Sequence record: MK327933.1
Strand: one strand, 5' to 3'
Origin: Escherichia phage vB_EcoM_G2285
Length of the DNA: 64,000 bases
The notes beneath the pieces are model-generated. The model had not been told where the DNA came from, did not search any database, and was given only the letters and a program-made list of their open reading frames with translations. This document shows, in pieces, positions 29,902-62,319 of this stretch (within the stretch, counting starts at the first letter, position 1; every line of letters starts with the position of its first letter). The position numbers and the translations under genes were made by a program.

Positions 29902-30905
29902 TCAAAAATCGAACATATCGAACAGAGATGCTTTCTTCTCGTAATCGAGTTTCGCTGCTGATGTGAATCCTTCAAGTGGTTTAATAAATGTCTTCTCAAG
30001 GAGAACAGTGTAGTCCATCCAATGAAGTACATCGTCTTTAATTAAATCTGTGATTTCAGTACCAGAAGGCCATGCGATACATTTATCACCGAATGGGTTT
30101 CCTTCACGTAAAGGCAGAACATATACTTTTTCACCTTCTACAACTTGCGGTGCATCGATATTACCTTTGATAGCCCGGTTATACGTCAGAATTCCACGAA
30201 TATGGAACGGGCATTTAGGACCAGGGAATCCACCGACGTCATATTTAGCAATGTTATTCGCAGAAGATACCGACGCGATGCTAATATAATTCAATTGACG
30301 GAATTCTTTTTCAAACTCTTTAAAATATTCTTGTAATGATTCTTCGCCTTCCTGAAGCATACGACGAATACATTCCTTAAGAGCTTTCTGTACTGCTTTA
30401 GGAGTCGAAGATTTCTGAGTCTCTAGACCCATGATTTTAAGCTTAGGTTCAGCGTATCTGGTTCCTTCCATATCCCACACGTTTAATGCATAACGTTTCT
30501 TACCAGTCCAGAATCCACCAATACCTTTAGAACCAAGCGGAGGACCAGCAATAGCTTCTCGGTCCATGAACATCAAATGTTGTTTATTGTTCATGTATTC
30601 ACACATTTCACGGAAACCTCTATCAATAGCTGGTTCCATACGTTCACGTGCAAACTTATCTAAGAAGTCTACCCAATGGTTGGTATCACGGAATTTAGAT
30701 TCACCAACCTTATCAATAATTTTATCTGCAGATACGTAAATGGAGTCTGTATCACCATAAAGAACGAAAGCTTCACCTTCTGTACCACAAACTTCATTCA
30801 GATATTCATTAACTTTACGTTCAATCCACTGTAAAGCCATTTGACCAAATGTTGTGATTGCAGTAGCATTACGCAAATCGTAATAACGGAACCAAACGTT
30901 ACCCA
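29902..30905 (-). CDS. 43: DNA polymerase gp43, cistron B exon 2 (palm/thumb, YGDTDS)
   Basis: translation from GNVWFRYYDLRNATAIT through YGDTDS to ..FDMFDF matches recalled RB69/T4 gp43 C-terminus; 5' boundary set at inferred splice site. Confidence 0.85.
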
Positions 30906-31137
30906 CATTATGTTCGACTGAGGTCGTTAATCTCAGCCCGGAATTATATCCAGCTGCATGTCGCCATGCAGAGCAGACTATATCATCATCTTTATAGATG
31001 CTATGCGCTTCCACCCACTTGGGCGTACTCCTTTCGGATAGTCGTTGCACGTTCCTCATAGAGGCTTCGCTCAGGATTGTCTACTAGAGATGTCCCCTGA
31101 ATTCACATAGTTTAAAGTGCGCCGAGTTATTTGGTTA
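30906..31137 (-). ncRNA. group I intron (td/nrdD-like, ORF-less, 232 nt) in gene 43
   Basis: interrupts motif B codons (..LYGAL | GNVWF..); core elements CTCTAGTAGACAATCC and GATATAGTCTGCTCTGCATGGCGACATGCAGC; starts TAA after exon U, ends ..CATAATG. Confidence 0.75.
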
Positions 31138-31306
31138 ACGCACCATACAGACTATTAATAAGCAATTTACGGTTAATCTGAGCCGTATTACCTGCTACTT
31201 CAGCCAATTCGCAGTTTTTAAGATGTTGTTCTAAATCAGCTTTGCTTAAGGACTTGAGATAAGAAATTTCATCTTGTGAAAAGTCTTGAGTGTATGTTAA
31301 ATTCAT
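31138..31306 (-). CDS. 43: DNA polymerase gp43, cistron B exon 1 (motif B)
   Basis: ATG overlapping HEG stop (TAATG); encodes MNLTYTQDF..NTAQINRKLLINSLYGA, the polymerase K-x3-NSxYG region. Confidence 0.7.
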
Positions 31307-32127
31307 TATATTTTATTCCTACAGTTATCAAAGTGCCAACGTTTCATACCAGATAATATACCTTCTTTACCACAGTGCGGACACGTTGCTTTAATCTCTT
31401 TAGCTTTAGCCCAGTATTCTTTCTTAGAGTCTGAAAGGGCCTTATTATGGGCTTCCGAATTGGTTTTGCCTAATCTTGTTTTAACTATATTAGGATTCTC
31501 TGAAATTCTTTGCTTCATCCTAGAAGACTGTTTAGAACGTTGTTCTTTCGACCAGCCATCAGATAAAACTTTCTTTTGTTCTTCAGTTTTGGTTGTACCG
31601 AAGAGATGGGATTTATTTTTAGAATAGTATTCTTTGAGACCTATAGATTGTTTTAACGAAGTTTCAGCAGAATGCTTTGTTCCTATTTTATTTTTACTTG
31701 CTACAGCCCAATTGGCTGCTGCTATGGCTTTATACTTTTCAGGATTTTTGGCTATAGTGATTTTAATAGAATCTGAAACCTTTTTAGCAATCTCTTGGGA
31801 CTTCATAGGATTTGGTAGATTTAAAGAATTTACATAATCCCAACCGCCTTTACCACCAGGATTAAGATTATATGTATCATTTCTTTTTACAAAATCTTTA
31901 TCTACAATTTTAGCTTCAAGGGCATAAGCTTCATCTTCATTATCGAATACTTCCAAAATGGTCTTTTGGAGATTTTCTATACCGTATTTTTCAACGGCTG
32001 CTTTAACAACAGGTCCAGAACCGCGGTAAATATCGTTTTGATTAGACTCATCACACTTATGAACACCTACATAAATTTTACCATTAACGACATTAGTAAT
32101 TTGGTAAACAGTATAAACAGTTTTCAT
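31306..32127 (-). CDS. GIY-YIG homing endonuclease inserted within gene 43
   Basis: VYQITNVVNGKIYVGV GIY-YIG motif; C-terminal CPHCG..MKRWHFDNC zinc finger; start set at ATG with SD GGAGG. Confidence 0.75.
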   Translation of the reverse strand: MKTVYTVYQITNVVNGKIYVGVHKCDESNQNDIYRGSGPVVKAAVEKYGIENLQKTILEVFDNEDEAYALEAKIVDKDFVKRNDTYNLNPGGKGGWDYVNSLNLPNPMKSQEIAKKVSDSIKITIAKNPEKYKAIAAANWAVASKNKIGTKHSAETSLKQSIGLKEYYSKNKSHLFGTTKTEEQKKVLSDGWSKEQRSKQSSRMKQRISENPNIVKTRLGKTNSEAHNKALSDSKKEYWAKAKEIKATCPHCGKEGILSGMKRWHFDNCRNKI

Positions 32128-32153
32128 AATATCCTCCATTAGTTGATAAGACT

Positions 32154-32183
32154 ATAATACCACATCCTTGTGGTATTGTAAAC
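32154..32183 (-). promoter_or_regulatory. early-type promoter for the intragenic endonuclease
   Basis: minus GTTTAC-N18-TATTAT then AGTCTTATCAACTAATGGAGGATATTATG. Confidence 0.45.
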
Positions 32184-33703
32184 TATTTTGAAGCCAAAAT
32201 CTCTTTAATTATTTCAGCATTTCGCTGTGCAGCCAACATGTAGCGCTTATGTTCTTTACGCTGCAAGAATACCTTAGTGATTTCTGTTGGAATCACACCA
32301 TCACGGTCTTTATAATACATCATGCCGTTAGGAGAGCAACTGTACACATCTGAAGGACGTTCGGCGATTGCGTTAATATACTCATGCAGTGGAGCTACTT
32401 TAAACGTTCCTGCTATTGTTTCCGGGCTAATATTCACTTGGCGAATAATACTTGGATACAGAGATGTAAGGTCGAAACTCATTACATATTTGTATCGATT
32501 TGGAATAGGTTCCTTAACAAAAGCGCCAGGATAAGGTTGAACCGGGTGAGAACGACCTTGTGGAATCACCTTGTTCTGCTCTTTAAGGCTATTAAAAATA
32601 ATAGCATCCCATGTTTTAATTGGGCTAAACACAGATTGAATCTGTATCTTAGCATAATAACCCATGTCCAAGCTCAAGTTGATGAACTGACGCTTAGCAT
32701 CAATTTGCAATACACGATACACGTCGATAATGTTATAAGAAATATATCGTTGGTGATTGCTTTCACGAAGCTTAGAAATAGGGCCGTCATATTTCAGTTT
32801 ACCAACGTTCAATTCAAATTCTGAAATGTAATCCAGAGAATATGACGGTTGATTGGTAAAAGAGAATTTTTTGTAAAGGTCAATGTAATCAAGAACAGAG
32901 ATACCGAACAATGTAATGATTTCACGAGAACCATACATGTTTTCGATAACTTTAACACGAGTTTTACGATGTGGTGACAACCGTTTTGCTGTGGATTCGC
33001 CAAAAATATTCTTGATTCGGTTATACACATATGGAATATCAAATGACTCAACGTTCCATCCAGTCAAAATGACAGGAGTTTTCTGTTGCCAGAAGTTGAG
33101 ATATTCCATCAACAATTCTTTTTCGTTATCGAACGGCATATAAATGATTTTATCGATAATTTCAGATGGAACTTCATCACCGCCTTGTTCTTGAAGCTTA
33201 GCAGCGATTTCAATAGACCATTCTTCTACATTACCATACGGAGAATTCAATAGATCAAATACATAGAACCTGTCGTCAATTGAGTCATAATGGGTGATAG
33301 CATCAATCGGATGTTTTGCTTGTGACGGCTCAGGGAACCCATCCGGAGATGTTACTTCGATGTCGAAGTTAGCCACACGAATTTTTGTATGGTCGTATTT
33401 GATTTCATAGTTATAAGTGTCAGACAAATACGCCAATTTGAAATCGTCCATGCCAAGTGCTTCAAGTCCGATATCTTCCATGCGTTTAATCCATTGGGAG
33501 GCATCACGCATATTAGCGAACAGCTTACGAGTACACGGCTTACCGTAGATATCGAAATATTTCGTAGCCTGACTTTCTGGACAATGAGCAAACAGTGATG
33601 GTTTATATTCTACTTCACGAGTACGTTCACGGCCATTAGAATCGATGTAACGTTCAAAAATTGAATCACCAATCTGTTCAACCGTTAAGTAAAATTCTTT
33701 CAT
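32183..33703 (-). CDS. 43: DNA polymerase gp43, cistron A (N-terminal and 3'-5' exonuclease domains, motif A)
   Basis: 506 aa; MKEFYLTVEQIGDSIFERYID..FDIEV..YNIIDV..DLTSLYPSII matches recalled RB69 gp43 N-terminal half; ends at in-frame stop. Confidence 0.9.
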   Translation of the reverse strand: MKEFYLTVEQIGDSIFERYIDSNGRERTREVEYKPSLFAHCPESQATKYFDIYGKPCTRKLFANMRDASQWIKRMEDIGLEALGMDDFKLAYLSDTYNYEIKYDHTKIRVANFDIEVTSPDGFPEPSQAKHPIDAITHYDSIDDRFYVFDLLNSPYGNVEEWSIEIAAKLQEQGGDEVPSEIIDKIIYMPFDNEKELLMEYLNFWQQKTPVILTGWNVESFDIPYVYNRIKNIFGESTAKRLSPHRKTRVKVIENMYGSREIITLFGISVLDYIDLYKKFSFTNQPSYSLDYISEFELNVGKLKYDGPISKLRESNHQRYISYNIIDVYRVLQIDAKRQFINLSLDMGYYAKIQIQSVFSPIKTWDAIIFNSLKEQNKVIPQGRSHPVQPYPGAFVKEPIPNRYKYVMSFDLTSLYPSIIRQVNISPETIAGTFKVAPLHEYINAIAERPSDVYSCSPNGMMYYKDRDGVIPTEITKVFLQRKEHKRYMLAAQRNAEIIKEILASK

Positions 33704-62290: not shown

Positions 62291-62319
62291 ATAGTAACAC
62301 AACTAGAGGAGAAGTAAAC
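62291..62319 (-). promoter_or_regulatory. early-type promoter embedded in 12-bp-arm palindrome (arms 62271-62282 / 62300-62311)
   Basis: minus GTTTAC-N17-TACTAT; downstream arm CAACTAGAGGAG contains the SD. Confidence 0.55.

Follow-up and report, generated by a model that had tools for sequence, protein, structure and literature searches.

Gene 43 of the RB69-like Escherichia phage vB_EcoM_G2285 is split by a GIY-YIG endonuclease gene and carries a group I intron, probably as a composite element acquired by homing

The closest described system to the locus reported here is gene 43, the DNA polymerase gene, of Aeromonas phage 25, whose arrangement was published by Petrov, Ratnayaka and Karam (J Mol Biol 2010 395:457) according to passages of PMC2988022 and PMC2993671. 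In these passages the split gene is given as 43A / IC-UTS / seg43(25) / 43B with the intron 25.g43B, gp43A and gp43B are described to co-purify with polymerase activity, and the intron, which has no open reading frame (ORF), is predicted to use the free-standing endonuclease for its mobility, a process termed collaborative homing. The RefSeq record of phage 25 lists the same parts, i.e. 43A, a homing endonuclease and "43B ... split by group IA2 intron". Here we describe a homologous locus in Escherichia phage vB_EcoM_G2285 (MK327933.1), found in a stretch of 64,000 nucleotides (nt), referred to below as the window, in which all gene 43 parts lie on the minus strand.

Gene 43 of vB_EcoM_G2285 consists of two cistrons parted by a free-standing GIY-YIG endonuclease gene, and the second cistron is interrupted by an ORF-less group I intron. 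We consider it highly probable that these parts form a composite selfish element, inserted where an RB69-type polymerase gene encodes the fingers domain and acquired by homing from a T4-like phage. The element would comprise the endonuclease gene with a promoter-bearing spacer, a swapped fingertip segment, and the endonuclease-less intron 169 nt downstream. The first-pass annotation of this DNA, made from the letters without database searches, had regarded the combination of a split and an ORF-less intron in one gene as notable, a view overtaken by the phage 25 record, where the homologous combination is annotated. The architecture is of an already known kind and holds no new principle; its RB69-like carrier is new.

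The two cistrons of gene 43

The first cistron, 43A, carries the N-terminal domain, the 3'-5' exonuclease, palm motif A and the first fingers helix. Its description in the first-pass annotation, as 506 N-terminal codons with the exonuclease domain and motif A followed by a stop, was borne out by the ORF itself, by alignment to RB69 gp43 and by Pfam (DNA_pol_B_exo1, E value 4e-29; DNA_pol_B, E value 2e-14), and the division of the gene into two cistrons by a free-standing GIY-YIG gene was likewise recovered with all its parts (Table 1). Over residues 1-503 of RB69 gp43 the alignment shows 496 of 503 identical residues, all seven differences falling within residues 441-502; relative to RB69, 43A terminates with three additional residues, ASK. 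The RB69 polymerase chains in the PDB, which are identical or near-identical to the phage gene 43 product, match 43A over residues 1-503 (32 distinct sequences among the PDB matches).

The second cistron, 43B, starts at an ATG which overlaps the endonuclease stop as TAATG with the A at 31306 in common, as had been seen in the first pass. It has its own AGGA (31320..31317), placed 10 nt before the ATG within the last endonuclease codons, and its translation therefore need not depend on that of the endonuclease. With the intron removed, 43B is a protein of 390 amino acids which aligns without gaps to RB69 residues 514-903. Residues 554-903 are identical to RB69, including the whole of the exon 2 protein (residues 571-903), for which 29 codons differ and all are synonymous, while residues 514-553 differ at 27 of 40 positions. 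Two details of the first-pass annotation need correction here: the second cistron does not resume exactly at motif B, but begins 46 residues before it, and the linker between the halves is not missing, since the alignment of 43A and 43B loses only the ten RB69 residues 504-513; residues 514-553 are kept in 43B in diverged form. This retained part of the fingertip appears, from its sequence, to be a foreign, imported version.

The fingers domain of RB69 gp43 comprises residues 472-571 (PMC3012046), and thus the split lies at the fingertip and the intron, at codon 570, at the border of fingers and palm. The motifs of family B polymerases are complete, with motif A (DLTSLYPS) in 43A, motif B (KLLINSLYG) in exon 1 of 43B and motif C (YGDTDS) in exon 2. 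The 43A tails and 43B heads can be aligned with those of phages phiAS4 and 25 and of the contigs L005 and L105, and exon 1 has a length of 169 nt in every split homologue examined. As the free-standing endonuclease gene splits the coding sequence and the ORF-less intron lies between motif B and YGDTDS, a two-polypeptide polymerase which needs splicing is the expected product, as also proposed in the first pass.

Table 1. Coordinates of the parts of the gene 43 locus and of associated features in the window.
Feature	Position	Strand	Length	Content or basis
Cistron 43A	33703..32183	(-)	506 amino acids	ORF; ends ...IIKEILASK, then TAG
Putative imported tract	32294..30901	(-)		From ~110 nt before the end of 43A, across spacer, endonuclease gene, exon 1 and intron, to 5 nt into exon 2
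Early-type promoter-like site	32183..32154	(-)		GTTTACA-N17-TGgTATTAT; motif match
Untranslated spacer	32182..32128	(-)	55 nt	From 43A stop to endonuclease start
Hairpin in promoter spacer	32177..32156	(-)	9 bp	Fold
Shine-Dalgarno of endonuclease gene	32137..32132	(-)		GGAGGA
Seg-like GIY-YIG homing endonuclease gene, free-standing	32127..31306	(-)	273 amino acids	277 amino acids if start at 32139
43B exon 1	31306..31138	(-)	169 nt	Second half of fingertip, second fingers helix, motif B
59-codon ORF	31306..31127	(-)	59 codons	Begins at 43B ATG
Group I intron, IA2-like, ORF-less	31137..30906	(-)	232 nt	Rfam RF00028; covariation
385-codon ORF	31059..29902	(-)	385 codons	ATG inside intron, in frame into exon 2
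43B exon 2	30905..29902	(-)		Palm (with motif C), thumb, C-terminal clamp-binding tail

The intron, the endonuclease and the spacer

The Rfam family RF00028 (Intron_gpI) matches positions 31170..30954 over model positions 1-253 with a score of 83.6 bits, the gathering score being 50 (E value 7e-21), and YGDTDS is in exon 2, so that a group I intron in the second cistron ahead of YGDTDS, as foreseen in the first pass, is confirmed. Its boundaries follow from the reading frame, from the U.G pair at the 5' splice site and from the terminal G, and place the insertion between nt 1708 and 1709 of RB69 gene 43, in codon Leu570; the splice junction already predicted from the letters, GGTGCGT/TGGGTAAC (slash at the junction), agrees with them exactly. 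The group I structure (P1, P3-P9, P7.1/7.2, P9.1/9.2) was drawn on an alignment of six introns, all inserted at the same gene 43 codon (vB_EcoM_G2285, Escherichia phage PSD2002, L005, phiAS4, 25 and UP87), and controls were made by sliding the 3' partners by 1-3 columns and by 500 shuffles. As drawn, 95.2% of the cells are paired, compared to 34-45% in the slid controls, 21 of 64 pairs are changed on both sides, compared to 0-3, and none of the 500 shuffles matched the observed pairing. The core helices P3-P9, including the P3/P7 pseudoknot, are backed by compensatory changes, P4 and P7 being invariant and so uninformative for covariation. In P1, GGUGCGU pairs with GCGCACU, two of the pairs covary with the exon sequence and the U.G wobble at the splice site is present in all six homologues; the intron-terminal G precedes the T of exon 2 in 7/7 sequences. 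The minimum-free-energy fold does not reproduce the group I fold and scores hardly better than shuffles (z -1.8), as expected for a pseudoknotted ribozyme, and comparative analysis was used instead for this reason.

A conserved 21-mer of the intron core matches 78 contigs in IMG/VR, a single one of them with a PolB (family B polymerase) motif B-like sequence nearby, which is downstream of the core, whereas motif B is upstream of it in vB_EcoM_G2285. The core is therefore common to a broad family of phage introns, and the IMG/VR loci were left out of the covariation test. At the gathering threshold Rfam detects no intron in L098, L100, L102, L009 and TH15. A separate observation regards the 9-nt loop of P9.2, AUUAACGAC (30923-30943, minus strand), of which the 8-nt core UUAACGAC, with U or C as second base, is found in all six introns compared (vB_EcoM_G2285 and the aligned positions in L002, L003, L005, L095 and L096). 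The P9.2 stem covaries at five of six pairs and AACGAC is found in J6/7 too; the conservation of this loop may reflect a tertiary contact.

For the endonuclease gene the ATG at 32127 is the likelier start because GGAGGA precedes it and because the homologues P0001, P0002 and the L105 endonuclease begin with MKT or MKN there. The protein is matched by PHROG 314, "homing endonuclease" (E value 1e-44), while no sequence in the PDB matches it. The best matches to it in 50,697 phage records are the gene 43 endonucleases of phiAS4, Aes508 and 25, with 41-44% identity over 97% of the length and E values down to 1e-63, and it is 63% identical to P0002 and 94% identical to P0001. In the seven genomic contexts checked, the relatives of the endonuclease directly follow a PolB N-terminal cistron in every case. 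In a ten-member family alignment the invariant residues are Y8, Y19-V-G21, E71, N87 and the C-terminal CPxC...RWHFxNC, and the vB_EcoM_G2285 protein is full length and has every one of them. We take Y8, Y19, E71 and N87 to be the equivalents of Y6, Y17, E75 and N90 of I-TevI.

The promoter-like site in front of the endonuclease gene is the best sigma-70-type match of the region (10/12 plus TG). A literature search gave no paper on a GTTTAC early-promoter consensus, and a test of strand asymmetry stands in for a published one. The window has 20 copies of GTTTAC-N16-18-TAnnnT on the minus strand, where gene 43 and the genes around it lie, and two on the plus strand, about 4 being expected for both strands together. 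The TG extension is present in 14 of the 20 minus-strand motifs, which include the sites at 62319, 59081, 58632, 54464, 50459, 45205, 20224, 19790, 19219, 14595, 13114, 12922 and 8091. From this asymmetry the spacer site belongs to what looks like the early-promoter class of the phage. The spacer of L005 has the same layout, with an analogous promoter-like site and a different hairpin sequence. Like vB_EcoM_G2285, phage 25 has a hairpin just before the ribosome-binding site of its endonuclease gene, seg43(25) (a passage of PMC2988022); unlike the phage 25 type, the spacer here carries the early-type promoter-like motif.

The mosaic tract and its possible origins

vB_EcoM_G2285 has the backbone of a Mosigvirus of the RB69 type, with about 97% identity to JK45, AV115 and HX01, and outside a central tract the stretch is 97-99% RB69-like. 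Among 346 phage records which match the locus none covers at least 80% of it, and the 153 records with 95-99% identity all lack the insertion. The insertion is thus present in none of about 150 sequenced RB69-like genomes, this host backbone being the new part, and no paper that deals with a split or an intron in gene 43 of phages of the RB69 type came up in literature searches. The substitutions that none of six Mosigvirus relatives has are concentrated at gene 43 nt 1410-1713. In RB69 numbering, codons 1-440 differ from RB69 by 19 synonymous and no non-synonymous changes, codons 441-503 by 15 and 7, codons 514-553 by 9 and 27, codons 554-570 by 9 and none, and codons 571-903 by 29 and none. 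Outside the tract 48 codons differ and none alters the protein, a pattern indicative of purifying selection on this part of gene 43, strict on exon 2.

A protein search with the exon 1 ORF identified L105, a 9.5-kb Logan contig with the full cassette, whose flanks are 96-97% identical to the Dhakavirus PSD2002 and 76-78% identical to vB_EcoM_G2285. Along gene 43, the identity of vB_EcoM_G2285 is 98.6% to RB69 and 78.2% to L105 for nt 1-1322, 78.0% and 81.0% for nt 1410-1509, 49.1% and 92.3% for exon 1 (nt 1540-1708) and 96.9% and 76.3% for exon 2 (nt 1709-2712). Out of 108 window-private sites of the tract, 88 are common to L105. From the endonuclease gene through exon 1 to the intron, nucleotide identity to L105 is 82-97% per 100-nt window with a mean of ~91%, and the proteins of the exon 1 ORF are 95% identical. 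A tract so close to the L105 cassette between RB69-like flanks points to horizontal transfer by homing. L105 is a relative of the donor and not the actual donor.

On the right, the tract ends 5 nt beyond the intron. The flanks of the insertion site read GCG T/TG GGT here and GCA C/TT GGC in the six Mosigvirus relatives (slash at the insertion point), and these changes at four synonymous sites create the P1 pairing and the U.G wobble. On the left the boundary is patchy, as codons of the Mosigvirus type (EHK.Y) are interleaved with cassette-type codons in the last 110 nt of 43A. Both edges have the pattern that would be expected from break repair against a cassette-bearing donor: the right one is immediate because homology resumes at once in the conserved exon 2, and the left one distant because homology resumes only past the heterologous fingertip and the endonuclease gene.

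From the anatomy and the intron fold we infer that 43A would be translated up to the stop within the fingertip, that 43B would be translated separately from the ATG overlapping the endonuclease stop and completed only once the intron self-splices, and that gp43A and gp43B would assemble non-covalently into an active polymerase whose two fingers helices derive from different chains. The mosaic boundaries and the homology to phage 25 suggest that an RB69-like phage took up the element by recombining with a cassette-bearing T4-like phage that had infected the same cell. The likeliest route would be double-strand-break repair, in which an active endonuclease, possibly expressed from the promoter-like site, cut the uninterrupted gene near the intron insertion site, and in which the repair brought in the intron along with exon 1, the endonuclease gene and some 110 nt of 43A. 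On balance we favour, with some reserve, the narrower reading of a recently completed cross-genus homing event from a Dhakavirus-like donor, with its conversion tract preserved, which would be the first such case in Mosigvirus among about 150 sequenced genomes.

Some observations weigh against the composite-element explanation. The Pfam scores of the endonuclease stay just below the cut-offs, with 23.7 bits versus 25 for SegE_GIY-YIG and 21.2 versus 22.6 for GIY-YIG. R35 is at the counterpart of I-TevI R27, in a column where the family members have R, L, M or I; the invariant H23-K24 may substitute for the catalytic arginine. L105, moreover, is not itself the donor, the tail of 43A being 81% identical to it with only 13 of 22 private sites in common. 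As to the endonuclease's own promoter proposed in the first-pass annotation, the good sequence match stands, but it is a motif match and not transcription, and no canonical T4 late promoter (TATAAATA) is found near the endonuclease gene.

Three other explanations were considered. The endonuclease could be inactive or silent and the whole a fixed, immobile relic, kept since precise removal would be needed to restore the gene. Such a relic would agree with the sub-threshold Pfam scores, with the variable arginine equivalent and with the existence of endonuclease-less derivatives, namely PSD2002 with the intron only and UP87 with the split and the intron, from which it follows that endonuclease genes do get lost. 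We nevertheless regard it as unlikely, given a full-length ORF with all family-invariant residues including CPxC...RWHFxNC and a transfer which looks recent, the cassette being about 91% identical to that of L105 and the backbones about 78%. An assembly chimera would need an RB69-like phage and a cassette-bearing T4-like phage in one sample and a switch between them inside conserved stretches of gene 43. The tract boundaries do lie in conserved coding sequence, an exact-sequence look-up in a large gene collection has no record of the exact 43A and endonuclease proteins, and the exon 1 DNA pattern is absent from IMG/VR and from the JGI metagenomes. However, the patchy left boundary, with its 13 of 22 private sites matching L105, fits heteroduplex repair and not a k-mer switch, neither the reading frames nor the P1 context shows a seam, and three further backbones carry the cassette (L105, L005 and the Aeromonas phages), so that natural transfer demonstrably happens; a chimera is in our judgement very improbable.

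In unspliced RNA the reading of 43B ends two codons into the intron, and a polymerase without splicing would consist of three pieces, i.e. 43A, a 59-amino-acid peptide and a protein from the ATG at 31059, or else the gene would be dead. The 385-codon ORF, which begins within the intron and continues in frame into exon 2, could be taken in favour of this, and the automated annotations of PSD2002 and phiAS4 call such intron-starting ORFs and label them "DNA polymerase". We give this explanation hardly any credence, since the intron core is intact and covarying, motif B would be stranded on the 59-amino-acid peptide, the homologous intron of phage 25 is annotated as splitting 43B and described as group I, and exon 2 is under strict purifying selection. 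The ORF is better seen as a pitfall for annotation, and it is improbable that a product is made from it.

RB69 gp43 is the best-studied model of the family B polymerases, with well over a hundred crystal structures, so that a structure is at hand on which to locate the split (503/514) and the intron site (codon 570). If the composite element is as we propose, vB_EcoM_G2285 would have a natural two-subunit version of RB69 gp43, in protein identical to RB69 gp43 outside residues 441-553, whose fidelity and nucleotide selection could be set against those of the single-chain enzyme. In Pfu polymerase, a fingertip split introduced by engineering altered substrate tolerance (PMC3061061). The mosaic boundaries would also make this locus a clean natural case of a free-standing endonuclease and an ORF-less intron travelling together and carrying host coding sequence across genera, one cassette type being found on Mosigvirus, Dhakavirus-like, Gaprivervirus-like and Aeromonas phage backbones. 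For annotation, the consequence is that pipelines give three or four "DNA polymerase" fragments and the intron-starting ORF for what would be one enzyme.

Neighbouring genes and known relatives

Directly downstream of gene 43, at 29861-27359 on the minus strand, are a gene for a 561-amino-acid GlmU-like nucleotidyltransferase/kinase and an arabinose-5-phosphate isomerase gene; both match genes annotated as arabinose 5-phosphate isomerase and GlmU-like in RB69-like records. Arabinosylation of RB69 DNA is reported in a passage of PMC6024577. Gene 43 of Shigella phage JK42 (MK962756.1, L001, about 500-1545) has some 375 bp from its 3' end twice in tandem, and in this record an extra "hypothetical protein" overlaps the polymerase coding sequence, which may be a real duplication or an assembly artefact.

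In the Aeromonas phages 25, phiAS4 and Aes508 the order of the parts is the same as in vB_EcoM_G2285, the fingertip is split at the same site after ...AAxRNxExIK..., exon 1 has 169 nt, the endonuclease is the full-length homologue described above and a homologous ORF-less IA2 intron is inserted at the identical codon. The differences regard the backbone, which is an Aeromonas Tulanevirus in the phage 25 type and an E. coli Mosigvirus here, the intron, of 278-347 nt in the Aeromonas phages and 232 nt here, where it lacks the P6 and P7.1 extensions, and the junction of endonuclease gene and 43B, where the stop and the ATG are 2 nt apart in the Aeromonas phages and overlap here. Aes508 (L097, 3319-6280) has, in addition to the same cassette, an annotated split intein flanking a VSR-like endonuclease gene in 43B, which gives four kinds of insertion in one polymerase gene. 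For phage 25, the abstract of the 2010 study reportedly describes self-splicing and the cleavage of intron-free 43B sites.

The full cassette is also present, each time on a backbone different from that of vB_EcoM_G2285, in the Dhakavirus-like L105 and in the VR7/VR26-like Gaprivervirus contigs L005 and L006, the L005 endonuclease being 63% identical; the fragment L007 carries P0001. These are unannotated metagenome or SRA assemblies and not described phages. In the metagenomic T4-like contig L100 (900-4322) the N-terminal part of the polymerase is distributed over ORFs of 402, 274 and 71 amino acids before an endonuclease of the same family, and probably holds a further insertion.

Partial arrangements are known as well. 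Escherichia phage PSD2002 has the intron alone, at the same site and 94.4% identical, without split and without endonuclease, while Aeromonas phage UP87 has the same split site and the intron, without the endonuclease. In Escherichia virus TH15 the same fingertip is split by a different GIY-YIG gene of 232 amino acids, without an intron (L104, MT446392.1, 591-3967; a Gaprivervirus coliphage GenBank record marked "UNVERIFIED" and unannotated); similarity of its product to the vB_EcoM_G2285 endonuclease is limited to the catalytic domain, with 39% identity. In the phage 44RR type, gene 43 is split at the same site by a spacer only, according to a passage of PMC2988022.

The T4 introns of td, nrdB and nrdD (sunY) have a like IA2-type core, td introns showing 72.9-75.9% nucleotide identity over about 210 nt, but they encode endonucleases of their own, namely I-TevI, I-TevII as well as I-TevIII, and sit in genes of nucleotide metabolism and not in the polymerase gene. 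Another related concept is collaborative or trans homing, as in phage 25 (PMC2988022) and in T4 mobE with the nrdB intron, where a free-standing endonuclease gene lies by an ORF-less intron in a conserved essential gene, as it does here. The end of the tract of vB_EcoM_G2285 at 5 nt past the intron is a point in common with this concept, and cleavage of the insertion site by the phage's own endonuclease is a prediction.

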